From the NCBI GenBank assembly GCA_016298185.1, contig JAEDDA010000002.1, forward strand, positions 6,674-70,673: a stretch of DNA of 64,000 nucleotides. The letters are read 5' to 3'. The stretch is from Bacilli bacterium (GTDB taxonomy: Bacteria > Bacillota_I > Bacilli_A > RFN20 > CAG-826). The notes below the pieces were generated by a model that worked only from the letters and a program-made list of their open reading frames with translations, was not told the origin of the DNA and did no database searches. Shown here piece by piece: positions 1,851 through 21,387 of this stretch. A program made the position numbers and the translations under genes. Each line of letters starts with the position of its first letter. Position 1 is the stretch's first letter.

Positions 1851-4800
1851 ATGAAAAAAGGAAAATTATTATTATTCTCCTTCTTAGCTGGAGTGCTAGG
1901 CTTTTCAGTGACTTTTGAAGTGGCAAAAAACATCAAATATAGTGATGACAATGTCACATACGACACTCCTGTTATTAGAGATATTAATCGTCCAGACTTC
2001 GTAAGAGCGGGCGATGATGAAATCCCAGATGTTAAAACCGTTGAACTCCATTATCATAACGACAATGGTGGATGCGGTAATGATACAACTACACTTGGTA
2101 CCGCAGGTGGACGTGCTTTCTATATTTGGACAACTGGTGTTAATGGTACTGAATGCATGCCTGACCACGTCGCTAACGACGGTCAAGACATGGACATCAC
2201 AATTGATTTAACTAGCGAAAAGTTCTCTAAATATGCTGGTAGAACCTCTTTGTTATTCATCATCAAATACCGTATGAATAGCGCAAGCGATGAAAACTGG
2301 GGTGGACAATCCTCGGATACAGAACTCAATTTTTTTGAATTTCCACCAGATGAAGATGGTAAAGTCGTCGCTTGGACAACAACCGGTTCTGGTAGTGATA
2401 TCGCTGTTTTCCATACCGAAGCTGAAACCAAAGTCCTTGGTGTTAAATCCGCAGAATTTGTTGATTGGAAAACAATTAGATGCAACAATACCGCAGAAAA
2501 CGTCAAATGGGAAATGTATGCGTTTGATGAAACGTTCTATAAGAGAGACGCCAAAACAAGAGATACATTTAAGAAATGGTATTTAATCATGAATGGTACC
2601 AATAGTGGTCCAACATTTGATATCACCTTCCCAAAGATGGCGCATATTAATATCGTTTATTGCATTGAATCAGTTGATTTAGCATCCACAACTGGGTTAA
2701 AGAAAACCTGCTATGTGACATTCGATAAGTTATATAACGATCCAAGATTCTTGGAACATTATGTATATAACGGCAACGATTTAGGATGCACAGTTACAGA
2801 TAATAGTACAACCTTTAAAGTTTGGGCTCCAACCGCAGCGAATATGTCATTACTCATTTATGGTACTGGCTTATCACTCGACTTTGGTGGTTCCAATAAA
2901 TCCACAGGTTATCATATGTTCTATCAACCTGGTGGTATCTGGGAAATTACATTTAATAGAAAACTTTCCGGTAGTTATTACACATATCAAGTTTCTAACT
3001 CCGGCGGTACACAAGAAAGTATGGACCCATACGCAAAAGCATGTGGTCTTAATGGTGTGAGAGGCTATGTTTTTACATCTTCTTTTACAAACCCAGAAGG
3101 ATGGGATGAACTCCCAGAAATCTGGGATGGCAATACCACGTTTAAGTGGGATTCCTCTAATCCAAAAGAAGTTAGTGGTTTAGATATTAAAACTCCTCAA
3201 GAATTAACCATTTACGAAGTGCATGTTCAAGATTTCACTGGTGATGCATCTTGGAATGGTACTGAATCTAAAAGAGGTACATACGAAGGTTTCATAGAAA
3301 GAGGTACACATGTTGAAGGTCATGAAGATGCTTCAACAGGCTATGATCACTTAAACGAATTAGGTGTTAGAGCGGTGCAATTATTACCAATCTTTGACCA
3401 CGATAACAATGAAATTGAAGAAGATGGTTATAACTGGGGTTACAATCCTCTTAACTACAACTGTGTTGAAGGTGCTTATTCTAGCGACCCTACCAATCCT
3501 TCTAAGAGAATTAGAGAATTCAAAAATCTCGTTTTACAAATGAGCAAAACAAATAACCACACACGTGTCATTATGGACGTTGTCTATAACCACGTTTCTC
3601 GTGCTTCTGCTTCCTCATTTACAAAATTAATGCCTAAATATTATTTCCGCTATTCAAGAACTGGTGAATACACAAATGGTTCTGGTTGTTCTAATGAAGT
3701 TAAATCAGAAAACTATATGGTGAGAAAATTCATCGTTGATAGCGTCATGTATTGGGCCAAAGAATACAAGATTAAAGGCTTTAGATTTGACCTTATGGGT
3801 TTAATTGATACTGAAACCATGAGAGCAGTCAAAGACTCCTTATATGCCTATGACAAAGACATTTATGTCTATGGTGAAGGTTGGACCGGTGGTGGATATG
3901 GTGAAATGATTGAAGTTTCTCCAGGTAACTGGCAAACCGTTCCTGAAACCGTTAACGGCACACATGGCACCACAACTGGTGCGGTTTATTCCGAGCTTTA
4001 TCCATCAGCTACATCCCCAGGTTATCTCGGTGGATTTAACGATAGTGGTCGTAACGCTTTAAGAGGTGGAAATGATCAAGGTTGGGGCTCAAGCAGTCAC
4101 TTACCAGGTTGGGGCTTTATGCAAAAAGGTAGCGATGCCTCCGCTGATGATAGAGGTAGGGTAGCCGATATGATTTGGGGTATTTGCTCAGGTCAAGGTG
4201 GTAACCCAAAACAAACCATTAACTATGCATCTTGTCACGATAACTGGACAGTATTTGATCAACTTTATTACACATTAGGTGATTCTAATGATGGAATAGC
4301 GCCTGATTATGAATATGTTATGAATGGAGTCACAACCGCTCACGCATTAATTTTTGCCTCTAATGGTGCAGCATTTATGTTAGGCGGGGAAGAAATCTTT
4401 AGAACTAAAGAATTAAGTGCTACCGATAGAGAAAAAGTTTCTCCAAATACATATGAACAATTGTATAGCAGATATTGCTCACATAACTCATACAATTCAC
4501 CATTAACTGTTAACTCATTTAAATGGGGTAATAAAATTACCGCTCATGGTGTCAGCTATGCTGGCTACTTTGAAGCATTCCAAAATATGGTGAAATTACA
4601 TCACGATATGGAAAAATTCCCATATCAATCTTCTGGTTTCCCATACCATCAAACTTCCGCAGGTAATCCAATTGATAACACCTCTTGGGCTGGTGGCGGA
4701 AAAGATGGTAATTATGAAGGTGCCGCTGGCTTCCAATTAGATGAATATTTCATCTTCGCAGCAGGCCGTAACTGGGGGTATATTAGTAGTGATGCACATA

Positions 4801-4919
4801 CATGGACTAAATTATTTGAATTTGGTACATGGAAACATGGCGATTATGGCAATACCGTTGATGTTGGCGATTATTCCACTAACAAAGGCTGTGCTATTGT
4901 TATATTTAAAAGAGGATAA
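1851..4919 (+). CDS. type I pullulanase (GH13), membrane-anchored or secreted, with long N-terminal non-catalytic region
   Basis: 1022 aa; N-terminal hydrophobic segment LLLFSFLAGVLGFSV; GH13 blocks YNWGYNP, VIMDVVYNHV, GFRFDLMG, YGEGW, YASCHDN. Confidence 0.9.
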   Translation: MKKGKLLLFSFLAGVLGFSVTFEVAKNIKYSDDNVTYDTPVIRDINRPDFVRAGDDEIPDVKTVELHYHNDNGGCGNDTTTLGTAGGRAFYIWTTGVNGTECMPDHVANDGQDMDITIDLTSEKFSKYAGRTSLLFIIKYRMNSASDENWGGQSSDTELNFFEFPPDEDGKVVAWTTTGSGSDIAVFHTEAETKVLGVKSAEFVDWKTIRCNNTAENVKWEMYAFDETFYKRDAKTRDTFKKWYLIMNGTNSGPTFDITFPKMAHINIVYCIESVDLASTTGLKKTCYVTFDKLYNDPRFLEHYVYNGNDLGCTVTDNSTTFKVWAPTAANMSLLIYGTGLSLDFGGSNKSTGYHMFYQPGGIWEITFNRKLSGSYYTYQVSNSGGTQESMDPYAKACGLNGVRGYVFTSSFTNPEGWDELPEIWDGNTTFKWDSSNPKEVSGLDIKTPQELTIYEVHVQDFTGDASWNGTESKRGTYEGFIERGTHVEGHEDASTGYDHLNELGVRAVQLLPIFDHDNNEIEEDGYNWGYNPLNYNCVEGAYSSDPTNPSKRIREFKNLVLQMSKTNNHTRVIMDVVYNHVSRASASSFTKLMPKYYFRYSRTGEYTNGSGCSNEVKSENYMVRKFIVDSVMYWAKEYKIKGFRFDLMGLIDTETMRAVKDSLYAYDKDIYVYGEGWTGGGYGEMIEVSPGNWQTVPETVNGTHGTTTGAVYSELYPSATSPGYLGGFNDSGRNALRGGNDQGWGSSSHLPGWGFMQKGSDASADDRGRVADMIWGICSGQGGNPKQTINYASCHDNWTVFDQLYYTLGDSNDGIAPDYEYVMNGVTTAHALIFASNGAAFMLGGEEIFRTKELSATDREKVSPNTYEQLYSRYCSHNSYNSPLTVNSFKWGNKITAHGVSYAGYFEAFQNMVKLHHDMEKFPYQSSGFPYHQTSAGNPIDNTSWAGGGKDGNYEGAAGFQLDEYFIFAAGRNWGYISSDAHTWTKLFEFGTWKHGDYGNTVDVGDYSTNKGCAIVIFKRG

Positions 4920-8117: not shown

Positions 8118-8214
8118 AGACCCATAGGATACATTCAACGAACCTTAGTACTTATTTATTAAAAAAAGTATTCTTTTATTTGTTGAATGCAAAAAACGAA
8201 AGGAGATTTCATTG

Positions 8215-9750
8215 ATGAAATTAAAGAAAGTCCTATTTCCATGTGCCGTCGCAGCATTAATGCTCGCAGGTTGTACTGGCCAAAAACAAGGCGGTGACAA
8301 CTTAAAAGGCACATACAATGTCACACTTTGGGTTTCCGAAGTTGCTGGTGTTGCCGATCAATTCAGAGCTCAAATCAGAGCATTTGAAGCCGAAAACGAA
8401 GGCATCAAAATCGTCGAAACAATTGAAGGCGTTTCCGAATCCAGCTCCGCAACTCAAGTTTTGACAGATATCGACGCTGCCGCCGATATTTACTGTTTCG
8501 CACAAGACCAAACAGCTCGTTTGATCGAAGGTGGTGCTTTAGCAAAATTAGGTAAAGCTGCCGCTGAACAAGTCAAAGCAGAAAATGACGCAGGTTCCAT
8601 CCTCGCAGTCACAGGTGGAAATGATTTATACGCATATCCACTAACATCCGACAACGGTTACTTCATGTACTATGACAAGAGCGTCATTACAGAAGACGTT
8701 GACATCACAAATTTCGAGGCAATTCTCGCAAAATGTGAAACTTCAGGCCACACATTCACAATGGAAGCCGCAGGCTCTGCTTGGTACATCGCCAGCTGGT
8801 TCTTCGGCACAGGTTGTACATCTACATGGACAACTGACAATGAAGGCAAAATCAACGGTGTCGTTGATACATTCAATGACCCAGTTAAAGGTTTAGCAGC
8901 AGCTAAAGGTTTATACAAACTCGTTAAATCCACAGCTCACAAAGACAATTCTTCTGTCGCTTCATTTGAAGATGCTACACCAGCCGCAGTCGTCGTTTCC
9001 GGTATGTGGGACTACACCACAGCATCCGCAATTTTAGGCGAAAACTTAGGCGTTGCTGAATTACCATACTTCCACGTTGGTGAAGAAGCATACCACTTAG
9101 GTTCCTTCTCTGGTAACAAATTATTAGGTGTTAAACCACAATCTGATGCCAAGAGAGCCGCTGTTATGTCCAAATTAGCCTTATACTTAACAGGCGAAAA
9201 ATGTCAACAAGAAAGATTTGACGAATTTGCTTGGGGTCCATCCAACAAAGTCGTTCAAAATTCTGAAGCCGTTAAAGCTAACCCAGCACTTGCTGCCTTA
9301 GCAAAACAAAACCAATATGGTACACCACAAGGCCAAATTCATGGTTCTTGGTGGGATATCGCGAAAGTTATCGCAACAGATGTCAAAGCCACAGATGGTT
9401 CCGATGAACAATTACAAGCTGCTTTAGATGCTTATGCTGCAAAATTAGCAGACATCTTTGAAGTTCACCCATGGGGTCTTGTCGGTAATATGGCAGAATC
9501 CAATTGGTCCACAAACATTGAAATGACACTCAATGCAAACGGAACATGGGAAATCACCTATGAATTCTTAGCAAATGCTGAATTCAAAGTTCGTTGTGGT
9601 GGTGACTGGGATTCCTTCGCCACATTAAAACTTACCTTACCAGAAGGTATGGAACAAATCGAAGGTGGCAACATCAAAGTTAACACAGCTGGTACATACA
9701 AGGTCGTCGTTGATCCAGTTGCATTAACATTAGTCATTACAGCTCAATAA
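8215..9750 (+). CDS. ABC sugar (maltodextrin-type) solute-binding lipoprotein with extra C-terminal CBM-like beta-sandwich domain
   Basis: ORF track starts at TTG 8212, but AAAGGAG SD (8198-8204) fits ATG 8215. Lipobox MLAGC; family-1 SBP body; last ~95 aa WGLVGNMAESNWSTNIEMTLNANGTWEITYEFLANAEFKVRCGGDWD... is not part of an SBP fold. Confidence 0.85.
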   Translation: MKLKKVLFPCAVAALMLAGCTGQKQGGDNLKGTYNVTLWVSEVAGVADQFRAQIRAFEAENEGIKIVETIEGVSESSSATQVLTDIDAAADIYCFAQDQTARLIEGGALAKLGKAAAEQVKAENDAGSILAVTGGNDLYAYPLTSDNGYFMYYDKSVITEDVDITNFEAILAKCETSGHTFTMEAAGSAWYIASWFFGTGCTSTWTTDNEGKINGVVDTFNDPVKGLAAAKGLYKLVKSTAHKDNSSVASFEDATPAAVVVSGMWDYTTASAILGENLGVAELPYFHVGEEAYHLGSFSGNKLLGVKPQSDAKRAAVMSKLALYLTGEKCQQERFDEFAWGPSNKVVQNSEAVKANPALAALAKQNQYGTPQGQIHGSWWDIAKVIATDVKATDGSDEQLQAALDAYAAKLADIFEVHPWGLVGNMAESNWSTNIEMTLNANGTWEITYEFLANAEFKVRCGGDWDSFATLKLTLPEGMEQIEGGNIKVNTAGTYKVVVDPVALTLVITAQ

Positions 9751-9761
9751 TTGAGTTATTT

Positions 9762-9796
9762 AGGGCTGGGGTCTTTTAGCCCCAGCCCTTTGTTTT
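9762..9796 (+). terminator. strong GC-rich intra-operon hairpin (attenuator / mRNA stabiliser) between SBP and permease genes
   Basis: AGGGCTGGGG-tcttttag-CCCCAGCCCT perfect 10-bp stem followed by TTTGTTTT. Confidence 0.6.
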
Positions 9797-9828
9797 ATTA
9801 AACAAAAGTTTAAAGTTTAGGAGGAATT

Positions 9829-11538
9829 ATGAAACAATATACCGACCTAGAATACTTAAAACTTAGTGGCCCAGAGAAATTCGCTAATCGATTCTCTAGA
9901 TTCTTCTTTGGAATCCCAAGGGCATTACTAAAATTTTTAAAGGCGATTGGAAGATTCTTCGCTAATATTGGAAGAAAAATCGCTAATGTATTTGTTAACA
10001 TTTATCGCACATTCGCAAATGGCGATTGGAAAACAAGAGTCTCTTATTTCGTAATGGGATTTGGCAACTTATCTCGTGGTCAAATTCTAAGAGGTTTATT
10101 ATTCCTTATTTTCCAAATTATTTTTATTGTGTACATGGCCGTATGGGGCTGGAAGTGGCTCTCACAAATGGGCTCTCTCGGCGTCATGGGTCCTGAAGAA
10201 ATTTATGACGAAGTATATGATACATATACTACTATCTATCACGATAATTCATTTAAAATCTTACTTTATTCTGTTTTAACACTTTTCTTCATCGTTGGAT
10301 TTATCGTTACTTGGTACTTCAACATTGAACAAAATAGAATCGCGGAACAAATCATTGGTTCTAGTCAAAGAAAGGCTTTAAGAATTTCTTGTAAAAAAGA
10401 GATCAAACTTCTTAAAAATGAATACAAAACAGTGCTCAAAGCCAAAGAACCAGATCCAAATGAACTTGCTCAATATAAAGAGAAAGAAAATGATATTAAG
10501 GCCCGCTATCAGGCTGAAATCGAAGCCGTTCCTGTTAAGAAGCTTAAGAGTGGCAAAGATGATATGAGATCATTAGTGGATGATCAATTCCACAAAACTC
10601 TTCTTGCTCTTCCATTACTTGGTATTTTGATTTTTACTGTTATGCCAATTATCTTCATGATTCTTGTCGCATTCACCAACTATGATGGTGCGCATAACGG
10701 TTATTCAAATAACTTATTCCACTGGGTAGGATGGGACAACTTCAATACCATGCTTAACTGGCAAACCGGAAACAAAGCTTATTCCGCTGCTTTCGGTGAA
10801 ATCTTATCATGGACATTAATGTGGTCAGTATTCGCAACATTTACCTGCTACTTCTTAGGTATGTTCGTTGCGATTTTGATAAATAAGAAAGGAATTAAGT
10901 TAAAGAAACTTTGGAGAACAATTCTTATTCTTACAATTGCTATTCCACAATTTATTTCCTTACTATACGTTTCTAAATTATTTGCTGATAAAGGTATCGT
11001 CCTTACATATTTACAAAAATGGTTCCACGTTCCGGAAACATTCTCATTCTATGGTCCTAACGCATCCGCTTGGACCGCAAGAATCACTGTTATTGTTATT
11101 AATATTTGGATTGGTATTCCATACCTCATGTTAATGGCAACAGGTATCTTGATGAACATTCCAGAAGACTTATATGAATCCGCCAAGATCGACGGCGCAA
11201 ACGTCTTCCAACAATATGTGAAGATTACTCTTCCATACATTATGTTCATTACTGGACCATATCTATTAACCAGCTTTATCGGTAACATGAATAACTTCAA
11301 CGTTATCTTCTTGCTGACCGGTGGTGCTCCAACAAATGCTTCAGCTTCAGCTGCATCTGGTTCTGTTGGTTACACAGACTTATTAATTACATGGTTATTT
11401 AAAATCACAACAGGCGCGAACTCCGAATACTATATGGCGTCAGTCATCGGTATTTTGATCTTCGTTGTCACTGCATTTATCGCGATGATTGTCTATAACG
11501 TGATGCCATCCACAAAGAATGAGGAGGATTTTCAATAA
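9829..11538 (+). CDS. ABC sugar transporter permease (MalF-like) with long N-terminal extension and charged insert
   Basis: 569 aa; AGGAGG SD; multiple TM segments; EAA-type loop ESAKIDGANVFQQYVKITLP; Lys/Glu-rich insert between early TM segments. Confidence 0.85.
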   Translation: MKQYTDLEYLKLSGPEKFANRFSRFFFGIPRALLKFLKAIGRFFANIGRKIANVFVNIYRTFANGDWKTRVSYFVMGFGNLSRGQILRGLLFLIFQIIFIVYMAVWGWKWLSQMGSLGVMGPEEIYDEVYDTYTTIYHDNSFKILLYSVLTLFFIVGFIVTWYFNIEQNRIAEQIIGSSQRKALRISCKKEIKLLKNEYKTVLKAKEPDPNELAQYKEKENDIKARYQAEIEAVPVKKLKSGKDDMRSLVDDQFHKTLLALPLLGILIFTVMPIIFMILVAFTNYDGAHNGYSNNLFHWVGWDNFNTMLNWQTGNKAYSAAFGEILSWTLMWSVFATFTCYFLGMFVAILINKKGIKLKKLWRTILILTIAIPQFISLLYVSKLFADKGIVLTYLQKWFHVPETFSFYGPNASAWTARITVIVINIWIGIPYLMLMATGILMNIPEDLYESAKIDGANVFQQYVKITLPYIMFITGPYLLTSFIGNMNNFNVIFLLTGGAPTNASASAASGSVGYTDLLITWLFKITTGANSEYYMASVIGILIFVVTAFIAMIVYNVMPSTKNEEDFQ

Positions 11539-12458
11539 TGAGTGAAGAATTAAATCAAGTCGTTGTTGAACAAGTCCCTGTTCAAAAACCCAAAAAAGAA
11601 AAGAGACATATGGGCATCAAAGCCAAGAGAATTATTAGCAATACCTTTGTCTATATTCTCTTAGTTATTATGAGCATTATTTGGCTCGCTCCATTTGTCT
11701 GTATTGTTTTACAATCATTCCGTTGTGAATCCACATGGATGACAGGTTACATCATTCCAAAACAATGGGGATTTGATAACTATGTAAGATTATTTACAAA
11801 AACAAAATTCCCAAGATGGTTCTTAAATACCACAATTATTTCAATTGCAACTGCAGCGTTGCAGTTAATCATCATACTTTGTATGAGTTATACCCTTTCT
11901 CGTTTGAGATTTAAAGGTAGAAAAGCTTTAATGAACGCCATGCTTGTCTTGGGTTTATTCCCTGGCATCCTTGGCATGATCATTCTTTATCGTATTCTCG
12001 CAGATTTACATCTGACTCAACAGAACGCGATACCGGGATTAATTCTCGTTTATACCGCGAGTAGTGGTATGGGCTACTACGTATCCAAAGGCTTCTTTGA
12101 TACATTACCAAAGAGTTTGGACGAAGCTGCCCGCGTCGATGGTGCTAATAGAGCACAAGTCCTCTTCAAGGTCATCTTACCACTCTCAAAACCAATCATT
12201 ATTTATACCTTATTAACATCATTTATGGGCCCATGGGGCGACTTCGTATTCGCACGTTATGTTTCATTCGGTCATAGTGATGGTATGAACGTCGCTGTTG
12301 GTTTACAGAACATGTTAGGTTCTGCAGCTAGCATTAATGCTAACTACACAACATTCTGTGCTGGCGGTGTAATCGTCGCAATTCCAATCACAATCTTATT
12401 TATGTGCTTGCAAAAATACTACGTCGAAGGTGTTACCGGCGGCGCGGTTAAAGGATAG
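11538..12458 (+). CDS. ABC sugar transporter permease (MalG-like)
   Basis: 306 aa; start overlaps upstream stop (TAATG); EAA loop DEAARVDGANRAQVLFKVILPLSKP. Confidence 0.9.
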   Translation: MSEELNQVVVEQVPVQKPKKEKRHMGIKAKRIISNTFVYILLVIMSIIWLAPFVCIVLQSFRCESTWMTGYIIPKQWGFDNYVRLFTKTKFPRWFLNTTIISIATAALQLIIILCMSYTLSRLRFKGRKALMNAMLVLGLFPGILGMIILYRILADLHLTQQNAIPGLILVYTASSGMGYYVSKGFFDTLPKSLDEAARVDGANRAQVLFKVILPLSKPIIIYTLLTSFMGPWGDFVFARYVSFGHSDGMNVAVGLQNMLGSAASINANYTTFCAGGVIVAIPITILFMCLQKYYVEGVTGGAVKG

Positions 12459-12470
12459 GAGAATTAATTT

Positions 12471-13634
12471 ATGGCAAGAGTAAAATTAACTAATGTTAAG
12501 AAAATCTATCAAGGCAATGTTACTGCCGTTCATGATTTTAACCTTGATATCGCGGATAAAGAATTTATCGTTTTCGTCGGTCCTTCTGGATGTGGTAAAT
12601 CCACAACCTTAAGAATGGTTGCCGGCTTAGAAGATATCAGTGAAGGTACAGTGGAAATCGATGGTGAAGTCGTTAACGACTTACAGCCAAAAGACCGTCA
12701 CATTTCCATGGTCTTCCAAAACTATGCGTTATATCCACACTTAACAGTTTTCGAAAACATGGCATTCCCACTTAGATTATTACGCCATCCAAAGATGAGT
12801 AATGATGAAATCTATCGCCGTGTTACTGAAGCTGCTGAAGTTTTAGGTATTACGCAATTCTTAAATAGAAAACCAAAAGCCCTTTCTGGTGGTCAAAGAC
12901 AACGTGTCGCTATCGGTAGAGCCATGGTTAAAAACTGTAAAGTTTTCTTAATGGACGAACCATTATCTAACTTAGATGCTAAGTTACGTAACCAAATGAG
13001 AGCGGAAATCATCTTACTCCGTAAGAAGATTAATACCACATTCATCTATGTTACACACGACCAAACAGAAGCTATGACATTAGGCGATAGAATCGTCATT
13101 ATGAAAGATGGTTTCATTATGCAAGTTGGTAGCCCATCTCAAGTCTTTGATAAACCAGATAACTTATTCGTTGCAGAATTTATCGGTGCTCCAAAGATGA
13201 ATATCGCTAAAACAAACCTTGTTAAAGAAGGTGGCAAATACTATGTCACTCCATTTGGCAGCAAAATCTTAGTCGATGGTGAAAAAGGTGCGGAACTTAA
13301 GAAGAGAGGATATGAATCTCAAGAAATCATACTTGGTTTCCGTCCAGAACATACCGTTTTATCTAATAAAGCGGAAGGTGCATGTCATGCAACAATCACA
13401 GTTAACGAAATGATGGGTAGTGAATTACACTTACACGTCGTTACCGATGATGGCTCACCAGTTATTATTAGAGTTCCAACCATTCAACTCACTGATAAAG
13501 AAAGAGAAGAAATGGTGGCGGGTAAAGAAATTTACTTCACATTTGAAGGAAAAGTCATGCACTTCTTCAATCCTGAAACTGAAGTTTCATTATTCTATGA
13601 TGCTCCAGCTCCAGTAGAAGAAAAACCAGAATAG
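12471..13634 (+). CDS. sugar ABC transporter ATPase (MsmX/MalK type)
   Basis: 387 aa; Walker A GPSGCGKST, signature LSGGQRQRV, Walker B FLMDEPLS, C-terminal MalK-type regulatory domain. Confidence 0.9.
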   Translation: MARVKLTNVKKIYQGNVTAVHDFNLDIADKEFIVFVGPSGCGKSTTLRMVAGLEDISEGTVEIDGEVVNDLQPKDRHISMVFQNYALYPHLTVFENMAFPLRLLRHPKMSNDEIYRRVTEAAEVLGITQFLNRKPKALSGGQRQRVAIGRAMVKNCKVFLMDEPLSNLDAKLRNQMRAEIILLRKKINTTFIYVTHDQTEAMTLGDRIVIMKDGFIMQVGSPSQVFDKPDNLFVAEFIGAPKMNIAKTNLVKEGGKYYVTPFGSKILVDGEKGAELKKRGYESQEIILGFRPEHTVLSNKAEGACHATITVNEMMGSELHLHVVTDDGSPVIIRVPTIQLTDKEREEMVAGKEIYFTFEGKVMHFFNPETEVSLFYDAPAPVEEKPE

Positions 13635-13648
13635 AAAAGGATTAAATT

Positions 13649-14050
13649 ATGGCTGAAGAAAAGAAAAATTCAAGTGGCATATTTAAAAACTTAACTATCA
13701 TCCTCAGCTCTATTGTTTGTTTTGGTGTAGCATTAGCAGGAATTATATTAGCGTTTCTCGCTATTTCTAAGACCAAAACACCTCAAACTTGGATGATGTT
13801 CTGGATTTATCTAGGGGTCGCCGTTGTTTATGTTATTTGGCTTGTTATCTTCTTAGCGTTCATCGGAATGAATAAGAAAGCTCTCGTCGTGGGAATCATT
13901 AATGTCATTCTCACCGGTGTATTAGGTGGTATCTTCTTCTTTTTCTGGAATCCTGATCCAATGCACAATCCTGGATTTTTGGAAGAAGAAATTAAGAACA
14001 AGAAAGACAATTCCTTCGATAGTGTACTTGGTGTTAGCAACCCTGAATAA
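13649..14050 (+). CDS. small polytopic membrane protein, unknown function (last gene of importer operon)
   Basis: 133 aa, 3-4 hydrophobic segments, AAAGGA SD, followed directly by a terminator. Confidence 0.6.
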   Translation: MAEEKKNSSGIFKNLTIILSSIVCFGVALAGIILAFLAISKTKTPQTWMMFWIYLGVAVVYVIWLVIFLAFIGMNKKALVVGIINVILTGVLGGIFFFFWNPDPMHNPGFLEEEIKNKKDNSFDSVLGVSNPE

Positions 14051-14067
14051 TATATAAAAATCTAATT

Positions 14068-14096
14068 AGGTGGTCTTCGGACCATCTTTTTATTTT
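14068..14096 (+). terminator. rho-independent terminator ending the importer operon
   Basis: AGGTGGTC-ttcg-GACCATCT hairpin then TTTTTATTTT. Confidence 0.7.
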
Positions 14097-14142: not shown

Positions 14143-15948
14143 ATGAAAACGAAATTTGTTGTTAACATTATTCATCGTCCAGAATTATCTCCTGAATACG
14201 CAGAAAAATCTTCTGGCGTAAAAGAGAAATCCGTACAAGATGAATCACTAGAAATTTTTAAATTCCAACAAGAAACCGCACACAAAAACGGTTTAAAAAC
14301 GACTATACAAATAACTTACGCTTCTTTGTTTAGTGATGTGATAGTGAATATCGCAAAAGAACACCATGAAAAGTATGGTGATGAAATCGGTTTATCGTTA
14401 TTAGGCCTTCCTTGTAAAGAATTTAGAGCCAAATATAAAACAGAAGACTTCTGTATTTGGATGTTCTCCGATAAACAAAAAGAAGAAATTGTCGACGATG
14501 TCTTTAAGATGTTCTACGACAAATTTGGTTTTTACCCCGAATCAACAGGCAGCTATTTTATGGATGCCTATACAATTAATTATATTAAAAAGAAATACCC
14601 TAGCGTGAAATGCGCAATCGCGACATGTTGGGAAGAAGGACCAAAAGCCTATCATACATGTAACAACTCTTGGTATACATTTATGGATGGTGGTCCATGG
14701 AATCCTTGGATTCCAAGTAAGGTGAATTCCCATTGTCCAGCATTAAATAAAGATGATGACAGCGGTATTGTTGCTATTCCTCACTTATCTCGTGACTTAC
14801 TTGCTTGCTTTGATGGCAATGGTTCTAACTTTGGTACCCATCCACAGAACGTTTTAAGAGGCATGATTTACTATAAAGATGGCGACAAGATTGAATACCC
14901 ATATTTATATAACCTCATCGATCAATATCGTCATTTAGGTAAATACAATAATGGTTATGCCTACAATATGATGTTTGTTGGCCCAGGTTGGTTAAACCAA
15001 AAAGGTCGTTGGGAATGCCCATATGAATTATTAAAGCAATCATACGAAGATGGCATGAGATACTACGGCAACCTCAAAAAACAAGGTGAATTATTAGATT
15101 TAACAATGAGTGAATTCGCTGATTTCTATCGCGAACAACATAGAGATTATTTAGATAGCGAAAATGCCTTATGGAAAGATATTCTTTACGGCAGTCAAAA
15201 ACAATATTTCTGGTACGCTGACCCATTCTTTAGAACTTGCTTAGACTTCAACCAAGGTGGTGCGATGATTGACTTACGTCCATATGTCGCTAGAATCCCA
15301 CAAAATATTGGTATTGGTCATGATCAAGTTTACGATGCAAGTTATCCATATTTAATCCAAGCCAATTACCGCGCTGGATACTTTACGCATTATGCAGGCG
15401 CAGGTACAGTGGAATCTTGCAAGATTTCTTATCACGGACAAGAAACCGATCTTTGCTTATGCCGCACATTAGCTAAATTTGAAAAGATTGATGGTGATGT
15501 TGTTATTACCGCAAATCCTGTCAGTGTGGTACTCGATGGCTTAGAAATCGTCATACAGTCCGTTTTCACCTTCAAAAAAGGTAAAGGGGAATTAGTTATT
15601 GAAAGAAAGATAATTAACGACCTAAAGGGCGAAAAAGTGACATTTAAGGAATATTTCACCGGCGCTTTCGGTTTGAACGAATATCAATCTGACTTATCTA
15701 AGGTCACCTTAGGCGTTGATAATGAAGAAATGAAATACCAATACTTAGGCAGAAAGATTAATAAAGCCGGTAAAAAGGCTTATGTGAATATCCCAGATGT
15801 TTTAACAAATATCTCTTATAGCGGTGATGTTGATGCTTTTGAAGTGGAAGAAGGTATTGCTTTCTCCCCATGCTATAAACTCGCTGCTTATAAAACTATC
15901 GATAAAGGAGGAATTAAAACATGTCTCAATCTAGTAAAGGCAAATTAA
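14143..15948 (+). CDS. uncharacterised cytoplasmic 601-aa protein, possible carbohydrate-active enzyme
   Basis: Long uninterrupted ORF, no signal peptide; aromatic-rich blocks NSWYTFMDGGPWNPWIPS and GPGWLNQKGRWECPYE; no family signature I can name; first gene of the galactan unit. Confidence 0.8.
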   Translation: MKTKFVVNIIHRPELSPEYAEKSSGVKEKSVQDESLEIFKFQQETAHKNGLKTTIQITYASLFSDVIVNIAKEHHEKYGDEIGLSLLGLPCKEFRAKYKTEDFCIWMFSDKQKEEIVDDVFKMFYDKFGFYPESTGSYFMDAYTINYIKKKYPSVKCAIATCWEEGPKAYHTCNNSWYTFMDGGPWNPWIPSKVNSHCPALNKDDDSGIVAIPHLSRDLLACFDGNGSNFGTHPQNVLRGMIYYKDGDKIEYPYLYNLIDQYRHLGKYNNGYAYNMMFVGPGWLNQKGRWECPYELLKQSYEDGMRYYGNLKKQGELLDLTMSEFADFYREQHRDYLDSENALWKDILYGSQKQYFWYADPFFRTCLDFNQGGAMIDLRPYVARIPQNIGIGHDQVYDASYPYLIQANYRAGYFTHYAGAGTVESCKISYHGQETDLCLCRTLAKFEKIDGDVVITANPVSVVLDGLEIVIQSVFTFKKGKGELVIERKIINDLKGEKVTFKEYFTGAFGLNEYQSDLSKVTLGVDNEEMKYQYLGRKINKAGKKAYVNIPDVLTNISYSGDVDAFEVEEGIAFSPCYKLAAYKTIDKGGIKTCLNLVKAN

Positions 15949-16181
15949 ATTATCGCTGTCCGTCCTGTTTCATGAGAGACATCGACATGGATATGTTCTT
16001 CGATGAAGAAAAGAAAGAATATTATTGTTTGAGATGTGGCTTCCATGGACAAGAGGAAGAAGTCCTTCGTTTAAACGAGCAGGCTAAATATCGTTATAAA
16101 GCCATGAAAAAGAGAGTGGTGTCTTTTGGCGAAGACAATGAACCACTTATCATGAAGGACCATAAAGCGGGAGAACAATAA
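15921..16181 (+). CDS. small zinc-ribbon protein (CxxC...CxxC)
   Basis: 86 aa; strong SD AAAGGAGG (15904-15911) 9 nt before ATG; CPSC-x19-CLRC; 28-nt overlap with upstream ORF and 1-nt overlap (TAATG) with the downstream GH53 gene. Confidence 0.65.
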   Translation: MSQSSKGKLNYRCPSCFMRDIDMDMFFDEEKKEYYCLRCGFHGQEEEVLRLNEQAKYRYKAMKKRVVSFGEDNEPLIMKDHKAGEQ

Positions 16182-17287
16182 TGTTTTTAGGTATTGATGT
16201 ATCAACATATTTTGATGAGCAAGAAATCGGTGCTAAATATTATTTAAATGGCCAAGAAGTTGATCCAATGAAACTCCTTGTTGAACAAGGCGTTAAATAT
16301 ATGCGTATTCGCGTATGGCACAATCCATATGACGAAGAAGGTCATCCTTATTTAGCAGGAACAAATGATATTAAAAAATTCATCATGCTTTCTGAATTAG
16401 CGGTGAAGTATGGTTTAAGAATTATTTTAGATATCCATTATAGTGATTTCTGGGCAGACCCCGGAAAACAGTTTCTTCCAAAAGCCTGGAAAGATTTATC
16501 TTTTGAAGAAGTAGAGCAAAAAGTCTATGAACACACAAAGGATATATTTAAGGTAATCCATGAACATAATTTCCCTGTCGACTATGTCCAAGTGGGTAAC
16601 GAAATCACAAACGGTATGCTTTGGCCTCATGGTAGACTTGATGAATCTGTTTCCCCTAGGGGAAATTATGAAGGCTTAGCCAAATTATTAAAGCAAGGTG
16701 TTAAAGCCGTTAGAGAAGAAAGCAACGCAAAAATTATCATTCACTTAGAAAGAAGTTACGATCAACCTGCCTATTTTGAATATTTTTCTAATATAATTAG
16801 ATTAGGCGTTGATTTCGATATAATCGGTTTCTCATATTATCCATATTGGCATGGAACATTTGACCAATTCTTCGCTAATGTAAAAATGTGCAAGGATAAC
16901 TTCCACAAAGAAGTGATGGTTATGGAACTCGGTTATGGTTTCACCCTTGAAGATTACATCAAGAACGGTAGCCAAGCTCAACTTGTGATTAACGCAGATA
17001 AAACTGATTTCCTCGCTAATCTTCCCTATCCAATATCTCCAGAAGGACAAGCTTTATTCATTAGAGAATTCTTAAAGAGAGCAAAAGATGCTGGAATGGT
17101 GGGAGTGAATTATTGGGAACCACTTTGGATTCCAGGTCCTGGCATTTGCTGGGCCTCTGAAGCCGCGCAAAAGTATATTCATGAAGAAGGAAAATCAACG
17201 AGAAACGAATGGGCGAACCAATGCTTATTCGATTATCAAGGCAATGCCTTACCAGCATTGAAGGAGTTTAAAATTGATGGAAAATAA
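16181..17287 (+). CDS. arabinogalactan endo-beta-1,4-galactanase (GH53), no signal peptide (cytoplasmic)
   Basis: 368 aa; GIDVS, IRVWHNP, DIHYSDFWADPGKQ, VQVGNEITNG, SYYPYWHG, MVMELGY blocks of GH53. Confidence 0.9.
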   Translation: MFLGIDVSTYFDEQEIGAKYYLNGQEVDPMKLLVEQGVKYMRIRVWHNPYDEEGHPYLAGTNDIKKFIMLSELAVKYGLRIILDIHYSDFWADPGKQFLPKAWKDLSFEEVEQKVYEHTKDIFKVIHEHNFPVDYVQVGNEITNGMLWPHGRLDESVSPRGNYEGLAKLLKQGVKAVREESNAKIIIHLERSYDQPAYFEYFSNIIRLGVDFDIIGFSYYPYWHGTFDQFFANVKMCKDNFHKEVMVMELGYGFTLEDYIKNGSQAQLVINADKTDFLANLPYPISPEGQALFIREFLKRAKDAGMVGVNYWEPLWIPGPGICWASEAAQKYIHEEGKSTRNEWANQCLFDYQGNALPALKEFKIDGK

Positions 17288-17765
17288 AAAAGAAAAATCA
17301 TTCTTCATCATCTTAACTATTGTTCTTGCTTTATTAGCGATTGGATCAATTGTCGCTTTTATCTATGCCTGCTATGACGCAAATCAAAAAGGCATCTTTT
17401 TTGGTGTCACCTTTGAACTCGTTTATATGGGACTATTTTTCATCGTGCAATTCTTTGCGTTTTTGATGTCTTTAAAAGCGGTAAAAAATGGTTCGTTTAT
17501 TTTTTCTGAACTTACGCACATTCGTAATAATGCAAAAATAAGAAGCAAACCCGCAGCGGGCATTGCTTTGGCATTTGGAACGATTGGTTTGGCGTTATTA
17601 ATTTATTCACTTTTAGTGATATTTAATGTTGCTCCAACAATCTTTAATTTCCCACTTACTTTATATATTGCTGCTTTACCAACTTCAGTCACTATTTTAG
17701 TGGTGGCAGCTTTCTTTTATATCTATCCATTTTTGTTTTTAAAGGGAGGAAAAAAACAATCATGA
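17274..17765 (+). CDS. 4-TM membrane protein, unknown function
   Basis: 163 aa, four hydrophobic segments; overlaps both flanking genes (translational coupling). Confidence 0.6.
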   Translation: MMENKKEKSFFIILTIVLALLAIGSIVAFIYACYDANQKGIFFGVTFELVYMGLFFIVQFFAFLMSLKAVKNGSFIFSELTHIRNNAKIRSKPAAGIALAFGTIGLALLIYSLLVIFNVAPTIFNFPLTLYIAALPTSVTILVVAAFFYIYPFLFLKGGKKQS

Positions 17766-19747
17766 AAAAATCATTCTTCATTATCCCTATGTTAGCATTA
17801 GGAATGCTCACTGGATGTAACAGAGGTTATGTCGAACCAGACATGACTAGAGATGATAGCAAAGTCGCTTCTGAATCCTTATTTGTGAAGAAAGTCGAAA
17901 ACATTCCAGAGGGCTTTATTATGGGTGTTGATGCTTCAAGCATCATTGCCGAAGAACAAAGCGGTGTCAAATACTATAATTTTGAAGGTGAAGAAGAGGA
18001 TGGTTTAAAAATCCTTTCTGATAATGGTGTTAACTATATCCGTGTCCGTATTTGGAATGACCCATATGACGCAAACGGAAAAGGTTATGGTGGTGGTAAC
18101 AACGATTTAGCGAAAGCTATTGAAATTGGTAGACGCGCTGCTAAATACAAAATGAAATTATTAGTCGACTTCCATTATTCCGATTTCTGGGCTGATCCAG
18201 CGAAACAATACGCTCCAAAAGCTTGGGTAGATATGGAACTCGAAGATAAAAAACAAGCTTTATATGATTTTACTAAAGACTGCTTAAAACAACTACAAAA
18301 AGGTGGAGCAGTTGTTGGCATGGTACAAATTGGTAATGAAACCAATGGTGGCCATATGGCGGGTGAAACTAGATTCTCTTATTTTGCTGCATTATTCAAC
18401 GAAGGTTCAAAGGCGGTTAGAGAAGTTTGGCCAAAAGCTTATGTTGCTTGTCACTTTGCTAATCCAGAAAAAACCGCGAACTATTATGACTGGGCAGCGA
18501 AGATGAAACAATATGATGTCGATTACGATGTCTTTGGTTCTTCTTACTATCCATATTGGCATGGAACATTAGAGAATTTAGGAACAGTTTTAGATACTAT
18601 TGCGAAGCAATATGATAAGAAAGTTATGGTTATGGAAACATCCTATGCCTACACAACTGAAAACACCGATTTCTGGAATAACACAATCGGTGACAACGGT
18701 GATGTAGCTAAACCATATCCATATTCCATTGCTGGACAAGCAAACTCAGTTAGAGAAATTACTGATACAGTTGTTAACCATATGACCAACGGTATTGGTA
18801 TTTGCTATTGGGAAGGCACATGGATTTCTGTTGGCAATGAATCCTTAGAAGCTAACCAACTCAAATGGGAAAAATATGGTTCTGGTTGGGCCAGTAGTTA
18901 TGCTAAAGATTACGATCCAAAAGATGCTGGTGCATGGTATGGTGGATGTGCAGTAGAAAATCAAGCCTTCTTTGATGAACACGGCAAAGCCCTTGAATCG
19001 TTAAAAGTTTTTAACTTAATGAGATATGGTAACGACGCTCCTAAATACATAGATGGTATCGAAGATGTCCAAGTTAGTTACTATAACTACGAAGACTTCG
19101 CACTTCCTGAAACAGTCAATGTTATTTATAACGATAACAGTAGAAGCGCTATTGCAGTGACGTGGGATGATTTCGACATCGATGCCGCGAAAGCAGCCGG
19201 TAATGCTAAATACGTAATTAATGGTGTTGCTGGCGGACAAGCCGTTAAATGCTATCTTACCATCATGGAAGAAAACTTCGTCAAAAACTATAGTTTTGAA
19301 AATGGCATGGATCCATGGGTTTTGACTAATAATGGTGCGGCATTAAGTGATGTTCATAAAGCCCAAATTACTAAAGAAAATCCACAAACAGGTACATCAG
19401 CATTCCACTTCTGGTCACAAGAAGCTGATTGTGTCAATTTCGAAGTTGAACAAACAGTGACAGTTCCTGCGACAGGTACATATAAATTTCAAATCTCCGT
19501 TATGGGTGGTGCGGATACCGGTGCAGCTGATGCTTCAAAACAAGATATCTATGCTTATGTCAAAGTAAACGACACCGTTTATCAACAATCCGGTAAGATC
19601 ACTTCTTATGGCGCCTGGGCTGATATTAAAATCACTGGTATTAATTACACCATAGGTGATACAATAAAAGTTGGCATTCACGTCAATTGTTCCGAAGAAA
19701 AGGTTTGGGGCGATATCGATGACGCAATGCTCAATTTGGTTCTCTAA
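17762..19747 (+). CDS. surface lipoprotein endo-beta-1,4-galactanase (GH53) with C-terminal Ig-like and CBM-like domains
   Basis: 661 aa; lipobox MLTGC; VRIWNDP, DFHYSDFWADPAKQ, VQIGNETNGG, SSYYPYWHG, MVMETSY; tail LPETVNVIYNDNSRSAIAVTWD (Big_4-like) plus beta-sandwich. Confidence 0.9.
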   Translation: MKKSFFIIPMLALGMLTGCNRGYVEPDMTRDDSKVASESLFVKKVENIPEGFIMGVDASSIIAEEQSGVKYYNFEGEEEDGLKILSDNGVNYIRVRIWNDPYDANGKGYGGGNNDLAKAIEIGRRAAKYKMKLLVDFHYSDFWADPAKQYAPKAWVDMELEDKKQALYDFTKDCLKQLQKGGAVVGMVQIGNETNGGHMAGETRFSYFAALFNEGSKAVREVWPKAYVACHFANPEKTANYYDWAAKMKQYDVDYDVFGSSYYPYWHGTLENLGTVLDTIAKQYDKKVMVMETSYAYTTENTDFWNNTIGDNGDVAKPYPYSIAGQANSVREITDTVVNHMTNGIGICYWEGTWISVGNESLEANQLKWEKYGSGWASSYAKDYDPKDAGAWYGGCAVENQAFFDEHGKALESLKVFNLMRYGNDAPKYIDGIEDVQVSYYNYEDFALPETVNVIYNDNSRSAIAVTWDDFDIDAAKAAGNAKYVINGVAGGQAVKCYLTIMEENFVKNYSFENGMDPWVLTNNGAALSDVHKAQITKENPQTGTSAFHFWSQEADCVNFEVEQTVTVPATGTYKFQISVMGGADTGAADASKQDIYAYVKVNDTVYQQSGKITSYGAWADIKITGINYTIGDTIKVGIHVNCSEEKVWGDIDDAMLNLVL

Positions 19748-21361: not shown

Positions 21362-21387
21362 AAGCGGACTTGATTCCGCTTTTTTTA
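21362..21387 (+). terminator. rho-independent terminator
   Basis: AAGCGGA-cttgat-TCCGCTT hairpin followed by T7. Confidence 0.75.

Follow-up and report, generated by a model that had tools for sequence, protein, structure and literature searches.

In ganSPQAB of Bacillus subtilis, an extracellular endo-galactanase of glycoside hydrolase (GH) family 53 and an ATP-binding cassette (ABC) importer are partnered by the cytoplasmic GH42 enzyme GanA, and this paradigm includes no intracellular endo-galactanase. We analyzed a 64,000-nucleotide (nt) stretch of contig JAEDDA010000002.1 from a Bacilli bacterium (hereafter the window) that has the components of a gan-type locus, namely a lipoprotein GH53, a substrate-binding protein (SBP), two permeases and a MalK-type ATPase, and in which the gene for a 601-amino-acid (aa) protein, followed by an 86-aa zinc-ribbon open reading frame (ORF), heads a six-gene unit (Table 1). 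Like GanA, the 601-aa protein appears to be cytoplasmic and is encoded with an extracellular GH53, a Gan/Mal-type ABC importer and, in its relatives, often a LacI regulator. In contrast to GanA, to which it is unrelated in sequence and fold, it has a zinc-ribbon partner and a cytoplasmic GH53, and GH42 stands alongside it in seven operons. We propose, with a probability of about 45%, that the 601-aa and zinc-ribbon proteins together act as an intracellular glycosidase that frees galactose from imported beta-1,4-galacto-oligosaccharides.

The 601-aa ORF matched 2452 clusters (90% identity) at E<=1e-3, all of them unnamed or "hypothetical" and none with Pfam domains, and can therefore be regarded as a real conserved gene. 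Its translation gave no Pfam match, no NCBIfam match and only noise against PDB sequences. In the Pfam search none of PF02449, PF08532, PF03065, GH38, Polysacc_deac_1 or PF12979 was hit, while a true GH42 from a related locus (L054), used as a control with the same tool, scored PF02449 at E=3e-141. The literature search returned nothing on such an enzyme in galactan loci, on new GH families acting on galactan, or on GH38/GH57-like beta-galactosidases. As judged by Pfam, NCBIfam, PDB sequences and the literature, a scope that does not extend to the hidden Markov models (HMMs) of CAZy (among them families that have no Pfam model, e.g. GH147 and GH165), the protein founds a new sequence family. 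The N-terminus (MKTKFVVNIIHRPE...) carries no signal peptide and runs directly into the first beta-strand of the structural model; the cytoplasmic location predicted in this way is one of the points that we count as established. An earlier note on this DNA, made from the sequence alone, had described three aromatic-rich motifs in the translation, had found no family signature to name and had seen no GH42, GH2 or GH35 in the window. All three motifs are present, the missing signature agrees with the database searches above, and the window indeed appears free of GH2, GH35 and GH42, as all ORFs of at least 500 aa fit other families and a GH42 query gave no match.

The 86-aa ORF, treated in that note as a separate gene, appears instead to be an obligate, translationally coupled and sometimes fused partner of the large gene, which it overlaps by 28 nt in the -1 frame. 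Counts for the subfamily of the window (at least 55% identity) were taken from 52 well-flanked loci (5 kb or more on either side), and in all 52 the small ORF follows the large gene. It also follows the large gene in distant branches (30-44% identity) and was not seen in one distant locus (L098). The zinc-ribbon protein carries a basic helical tail and represents a conserved family with 1292 clusters; among the matches listed, all 120 are 86 aa long. In the two most distant homologues of the large protein (P0190 and P0195), a C-terminal extension holds the same CxxC...CxxC module and aligns to the 86-aa ORF (BLASTP E=1e-6), the two proteins thus being fused, and C13, P14, C16, C36 and C39 are invariant in both the free and the fused forms. 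Because the zinc-ribbon ORF accompanies the family, seems to be translationally coupled to it and is fused in two distant homologues, we infer that the 601-aa and 86-aa proteins form one two-subunit complex, and we regard the partnership itself as established.

The small ORF was in the -1 frame in all 18 loci inspected, with an overlap usually of 22-28 nt, an AGGAGG/GGAGG box about 9 nt 5' of its ATG and no slippery heptamer. Gene order, overlap and box point to translational coupling of the two genes. Programmed -1 frameshifting joining both ORFs, an idea that had come from the conserved overlap, the constant frame and the natural fusions, was rejected since a canonical Shine-Dalgarno sequence and ATG are present in every locus inspected and the slippery heptamer is absent. 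The 28-nt overlap, the frame and the internal AGGAGG were also kept in L001, L004, L054, L063, L100, L103 and L104, where the proteins share only about 40-75% identity, so that the final nine codons of the large gene would co-evolve in two frames with the initial nine of the small gene.

An AlphaFold model built from a diverse alignment (predicted local distance difference test score, pLDDT, 90.9; predicted template modelling score, pTM, 0.91) superseded a first model from a shallow alignment, which had a pLDDT of 73, was poor in the conserved loops and did not have PDB entry 3lm3 among the 50 Foldseek matches listed. In the better model, residues 1-335 or so are predicted to form a GH38/GH57/DUF3863-like barrel of the type found in carbohydrate esterase family 4 (CE4), and residues 340-600 or so a galactose-mutarotase-like beta-sandwich. 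Foldseek ranked 3lm3 (BDI_3119, "putative glycoside hydrolase/deacetylase") first in the PDB (E=7.5e-16, TMt 0.64, 15% identity), and the GH57 4-alpha-glucanotransferase 1k1x_A aligned across both domains (E=5e-14, 9% identity). GH38 mannosidases matched at E=4e-9 to 1e-4, the CE4 deacetylases 3qbu and 3rxz matched on the barrel only (E of about 1e-6 to 1e-5), and galactose-mutarotase (GalM)-like sandwiches matched the C-terminal half. GH2 beta-galactosidases appeared only at E of about 1e-4 to 2e-3, their TM scores were low, and we read these matches as falling on the C-terminal beta-sandwich. Independently of Foldseek, the sequence profile of the family weakly touched 3lm3 at the GGPWxPWxPS..PA loop (E=0.009); PF12979 gave no match for the window protein and weak matches for two of 34 family members (E>=0.0036), and a DUF3863-seeded search returned only two fragments, both from a frameshift-ridden assembly locus. 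By its model, the 601-aa protein is a member of the glycoside hydrolase/deacetylase barrel superfamily, is built from two domains like GH57 and GH38 and lies outside those sequence families, and at the level of fold class we consider the assignment established. The impression of the earlier note that the protein looks carbohydrate-active is supported by this check: the fold is that of carbohydrate-active enzymes (CAZymes), and no confident HMM or structural match to a non-carbohydrate family was obtained. The classical (beta/alpha) barrel that had been expected was not found, the barrel being of the GH38/GH57/CE4 type and not a GH-A (beta/alpha)8 barrel.

The closest described structures differ from the family in instructive ways. 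The DUF3863 protein 3lm3 of Parabacteroides distasonis has the loop motif GxPxxPxYPS....PA in common with it, while the adjacent PHLxRD motif of the family (H214, R217, D218) is not conserved in 3lm3, which is 434 aa long and has its own DUF3864 tail. We know of no zinc-ribbon partner for 3lm3, and in the literature search DUF3863 and BDI_3119 were unmentioned and full-text matches to "3LM3" belonged to unrelated papers. The GH57 enzyme of Thermococcus litoralis (1k1x) likewise combines a distorted barrel with a following beta-sandwich and acts in the cytoplasm on imported oligosaccharides; in contrast, the substrates of GH57 enzymes are alpha-glucans or alpha-galactosides, the context of the 601-aa protein is beta-1,4-galactan and PF03065 is not matched. 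The "IHRPE" at the end of strand 1 loosely recalls what we take to be the "HQP" region of GH57. GH38 alpha-mannosidases (Bl_Man38A 7ufr, 2wyh) have the same superfamily architecture of barrel and beta-sandwich, but they are much larger and use a catalytic His/Asp zinc site, whereas the 601-aa family lacks an invariant histidine.

An exhaustive search among 50%-identity representatives yielded 525 matches at E<=1e-3, of which some 35 are full length (570-676 aa) with identities down to 22-26%, and a scan of one genome per species placed relatives in at least 597 species genomes. The closest 80 loci, obtained by a genome scan with a 9-sequence alignment, came almost entirely from uncultured gut or rumen Firmicutes, with hosts among the 80 listed belonging to Clostridia, Christensenellaceae, Oscillospiraceae, Lachnospiraceae, Erysipelotrichaceae and "Bacilli" metagenome-assembled genomes. 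Across 34 diverse members, E81, E165, G166, G183, W186, P191, R217, R239, Y254, N269, R364, D377, R379, G390 and P402 were invariant, and near-invariant residues included Q42, T54, D141, C162, E164, W177, H214, D218, W283, W357, R410 and E503. Invariant acidic, aromatic and arginine residues are thus kept down to 22% identity. No histidine was invariant in this alignment, H11, H214 and H233 each being replaced in some members, and a CE4-type metallo-deacetylase is disfavoured because the Asp-His-His triad is not conserved.

The same absence of a conserved CE4 metal site bears on the broader possibility that the pair cleaves no glycosidic bond at all and is a carbohydrate esterase or deacetylase, another enzyme of the superfamily, or a sugar sensor whose zinc ribbon binds nucleic acid or protein. 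Such a role would agree with the barrel matches to 3qbu and 3rxz, with a nearest neighbour (3lm3) without known activity, with a zinc ribbon and basic helical tail that are atypical for glycosidases, and with the GDSL esterases and YdjC encoded in some distant loci. We nevertheless consider it rather improbable, as the two-domain build resembles GH57 and GH38 and not the single-domain CE4 enzymes, pectic beta-1,4-galactan is not generally known to be substantially esterified, and regulators (LacI or AraC/two-component) are already present in the loci.

The genomic linkage of the pair to galactan use is established by the neighbourhood survey. Whereas the earlier note had raised the case of homologues that never occur near GH53 or transporters, GH53 was present in 51 of the 52 well-flanked loci and ABC permeases in 49. 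Alpha-glucan genes (GH13, GH77 or pullulanase) were found in 27, GH53 without any alpha-glucan gene in 25 and alpha-glucan genes without GH53 in a single locus. Within this subfamily, L100 is a closed operon of LacI, a 612-aa homologue, the zinc-ribbon protein, GH53 (372 aa), SBP, two permeases and GH53/Big_4 with no other enzymes, and by analogy it can be described as the B. subtilis gan layout with GanA swapped for the pair and a cytoplasmic GH53. These data also bear on whether the pair might be a GH57-like alpha-glucan enzyme, an amylase or 4-alpha-glucanotransferase acting on maltodextrins, with the GH53 linkage incidental to mixed starch/galactan loci. The structural similarity to the GH57 4-alpha-glucanotransferase, the alpha-glucan genes near the pair in the window and in the 27 related loci, and the general homology between Gan-type and maltodextrin-type ABC importers would all accommodate that idea. 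It is made very improbable by the ratio of 25 GH53-only loci to one alpha-glucan-only locus, by the closed, LacI-regulated GH53 operon of L100, by the lack of a Pfam GH57 match and by the fact that the additional recurrent neighbours are Leloir genes and not maltose or glycogen genes.

When the neighbours not otherwise explained were surveyed without bias, LacI came first, followed by GalK, GalT, GalE and GalM (galactokinase, Gal-1-P uridylyltransferase, UDP-glucose 4-epimerase and aldose 1-epimerase), a set of recurrent neighbours that speaks for galactose as the product. In L037, L041 and L043 the co-directional order GalT, GalK, GalE, GalM (in L037 and L043), 601-aa protein, zinc ribbon, GH53, SBP, two permeases and MalK was observed, with no GH42 in reach. 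The presence of GalK and of the mutarotase GalM beside the gene fits free beta-galactose as a product, which argues against a phosphorylase or transglycosylase that would convert beta-1,4-galacto-oligosaccharides to galactose 1-phosphate or disproportionated chains. For such chemistry speak four invariant arginines (R217, R239, R364 and R379) that could bind phosphate, the recurrence of GalT, the glucanotransferase as best full-length structural match, and hosts that are strict anaerobes, organisms in which phosphorolysis of imported oligosaccharides is common (GH94, GH112, GH130). Conserved arginines are, however, common in ordinary glycosidases too and no phosphorylase is generally known with this fold, so that we judge this chemistry improbable.

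GH42 was encoded within 10 kb in 8 of the 52 loci and not in the other 44. In line with these 44, the pair would occupy the place of a beta-galactosidase, as the earlier note had suggested, but this part of the suggestion does not hold for seven Lachnospiraceae-type operons in which a genuine GH42 directly follows the zinc-ribbon gene and precedes GH53. The pair is therefore not a simple GH42 substitute, which suggests a non-redundant role. One such role would be that of a complementary glycosidase acting on imported type-I (arabino)galactan fragments that GH42 and GH53 cannot handle, such as L-arabinosyl caps or branches, a non-beta-1,4 galactosyl linkage or a particular chain length. The seven operons with both GH42 and cytoplasmic GH53 favour this, and arabinofuranosidase and arabinopyranosidase families were not seen in the surveyed loci, while distant members lie among debranching enzymes (GH43, GH36, GH2 and GH28) in L103. 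We still regard it as unlikely, since arabinose-catabolic genes were not recurrent in the neighbourhood survey and several of the 44 loci without GH42 in reach are contiguous with galK/galT/galM, so that another enzyme must release galactose there. In L076 the importer, the 601-aa protein and the zinc-ribbon protein occur with no GH53 within 10 kb, and the pair may therefore act without a locally encoded GH53. Following the galactan operon in five Lachnospiraceae-type loci, a Peripla_BP sugar-binding domain is fused to a GGDEF diguanylate cyclase (L054 15409-17343), which hints at galactan-responsive cyclic di-GMP signalling.

For the galactose-releasing glycosidase that we favour, the following sequence of events may be envisaged. 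The lipoprotein GH53 would cut beta-1,4-galactan outside the cell, the ABC importer would bring the oligosaccharides into the cell, the cytoplasmic GH53 would shorten them, and the 601-aa/zinc-ribbon enzyme would split galactobiose and galactotriose into free galactose for the Leloir pathway. Catalysis would probably depend on two carboxylates, with E165 and one of E81, D218 or D377 as candidates, in a pocket lined by aromatic residues and arginines. In this scheme we infer what the substrate is, which bond is cleaved, that the chemistry is hydrolytic and which residues catalyse it.

Several points weigh against it in addition to the GH42 found in the seven operons. The characterised glycosidases that have such a barrel (GH38, GH57) cleave alpha-linkages; we know of no beta-galactosidase with a GH38/GH57-type barrel and of no glycosidase with a zinc-ribbon subunit. 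The nearest structure, 3lm3, comes from structural genomics and has no known function, the carrier genomes could encode a beta-galactosidase at another site, and distant members adjoin GH26/GH5, GH16, GH28/GH43/GH36/GH2 or housekeeping genes. The more far-reaching proposal is accordingly a tentative one: that the pair constitutes a new GH or glycoside phosphorylase family in which, for the first time, a GH38/GH57-type barrel cleaves beta-galactosidic bonds and a glycosidase has a zinc ribbon as obligate subunit, that it provides the main cytoplasmic route from galactan oligosaccharides to galactose in hundreds of Firmicutes species, uncultured and from gut or rumen, and that its sister subfamilies act on other plant glycans. 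The hydrolase or phosphorylase on beta-1,4-galacto-oligosaccharides put forward in the earlier note is thus supported in part: the new sequence family, the CAZyme-like fold and the linkage to GH53, importer and Leloir genes speak for it, while the type of fold and the coexistence with GH42 do not.

The contexts of the distant subfamilies were collected by a metagenome scan and single look-ups, several of the contigs being too short to inform. Pairs were found beside GH26 with a family 11 carbohydrate-binding module (CBM11), GH5 with CBM4_9, an apiosidase-like protein, an ABC importer and a two-component system (L090/L091), beside a GH16-like giant protein (L092), among GH123, GH36, GH43, GH28 and GH2 (L103), and with an ABC importer and a giant SLH/CBM4_9 protein (L105). 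A large-protein homologue lies near GH28, a GH63-like protein, YdjC and GDSL in L098, a housekeeping context was seen once (L093), and the fused homologue P0190 lies near two giant GH42 proteins in L106. Upstream of P0190 (L106 1-7085), these proteins of 1185 and 1301 aa with GH42 domains are separated by several unannotated ORFs. The apiosidase-like (PF13204) gene recurs beside distant members (L091 5362-6624 and L098 8173-9837) and could represent another conserved partner within the distant subfamily. Because the distant subfamilies sit in other glycan loci, the family looks polyspecific from its gene neighbourhoods, with subfamilies that track different plant glycans. The galactan role first proposed for the 601-aa protein would thus apply to the subfamily of the window, which is tied to GH53, and not extend to the distant members in non-galactan loci.

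The contents of the six-gene unit were as described in the earlier note, including which products are signal-less and which are lipoproteins, and the unit is bounded by the two terminator-like hairpins listed in Table 1.

Table 1. Position of the 601-aa gene, its partner and neighbouring features in the window
Feature	Position	Strand	Remarks
ABC importer: lipoprotein SBP, two permeases, MalK-type ATPase	8212-13634	+	
Intrinsic-terminator-like hairpin and T-run	14068-14096 (hairpin 14068-14087)	+	Ends upstream ABC-transporter unit
601-aa gene (putative large subunit)	14143-15948	+	ATG start; ORF of 601 codons
Shine-Dalgarno AGGAGG of zinc-ribbon ORF	15906-15911	+	Inside 3' end of 601-aa gene
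Zinc-ribbon protein (putative small subunit), 86 aa	15921-16181	+	CxxC...CxxC
GH53 endo-beta-1,4-galactanase homologue, 368 aa, signal-less	16181-17287	+	PF07745, E=4e-98
Multi-pass hydrophobic membrane protein, 163 aa	17274-17765	+	No family assignment
Lipoprotein GH53 with Big_4, 661 aa, predicted extracellular endo-galactanase	17762-19747	+	Lipobox LTGC
Lipoprotein GH13 with SusG_C, 530 aa	19750-21342	+	Lipobox LICGC
Terminator-like hairpin after GH13 gene	21362-21381	+	Closes six-gene unit

The 368-aa GH53 is presumably cytoplasmic. A signal-less GH53 adjoins the 601-aa/zinc-ribbon pair in most related loci, and two separate GH53 genes were present in 44 of 87 loci. The 163-aa gene lies between the two GH53 genes, overlapping each, and was found in only four related loci (L005, L016, L025 and L030); its product is lineage-specific and probably not part of the core. 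A second small hydrophobic protein without family assignment (133 aa) is encoded at 13649-14050. A GH13 homologue was present within the fetched flanks of 36 of 84 related loci, often beside the extracellular GH53, a pairing of a surface alpha-amylase-like enzyme with a surface galactanase.

The importer of the window is homologous to those beside the pair in closer related loci (SBP about 38-57% and second permease 57-73% identity). At the C-terminus, its SBP lipoprotein (8212-9750) is extended by a stretch with a sub-threshold SusE/SusF-like match (PF16411, E=3.4e-5); for the SBP of a Gram-positive bacterium, such a glycan-binding addition would be unusual. Upstream of the six-gene unit are GH77, a CBM48 protein, a pullulanase-like GH13 and the ABC importer, and downstream are GlgB and GlgP. 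A secreted 1022-aa protein (1851-4919), for which Pfam gives CBM48 only and no catalytic domain, is pullulanase-like by tblastn cross-matches with the neighbouring 890-aa protein; it could be either a diverged GH13 or a binding protein. The remaining 36 kb of the window are housekeeping, including PheT, IleS, MutS2, UvrC, Clp and FtsA/FtsZ.

Pectic galactan and galacto-oligosaccharides rank among the main dietary fibres and prebiotics, and the accepted Firmicute route of extracellular GH53, ABC importer and cytoplasmic GH42 does not fit these loci, which occur in several hundred or more species of the gut and rumen, mostly uncultured ones. The CAZyme-like family described here is new, has an unusual subunit and falls into a fold superfamily already known. 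Should the pair be what releases galactose, CAZyme-based predictions of galactan users would be systematically incomplete, and a new GH family with an unusual relation of fold to linkage and a metal-ribbon subunit would be at hand, with the sister subfamilies next to GH26/GH5, GH16 and GH28/GH43/GH36/GH2 as immediate targets. New GH families are found regularly; what would distinguish this one is its wide spread among gut Firmicutes and the visible gap that it would fill in a textbook pathway.

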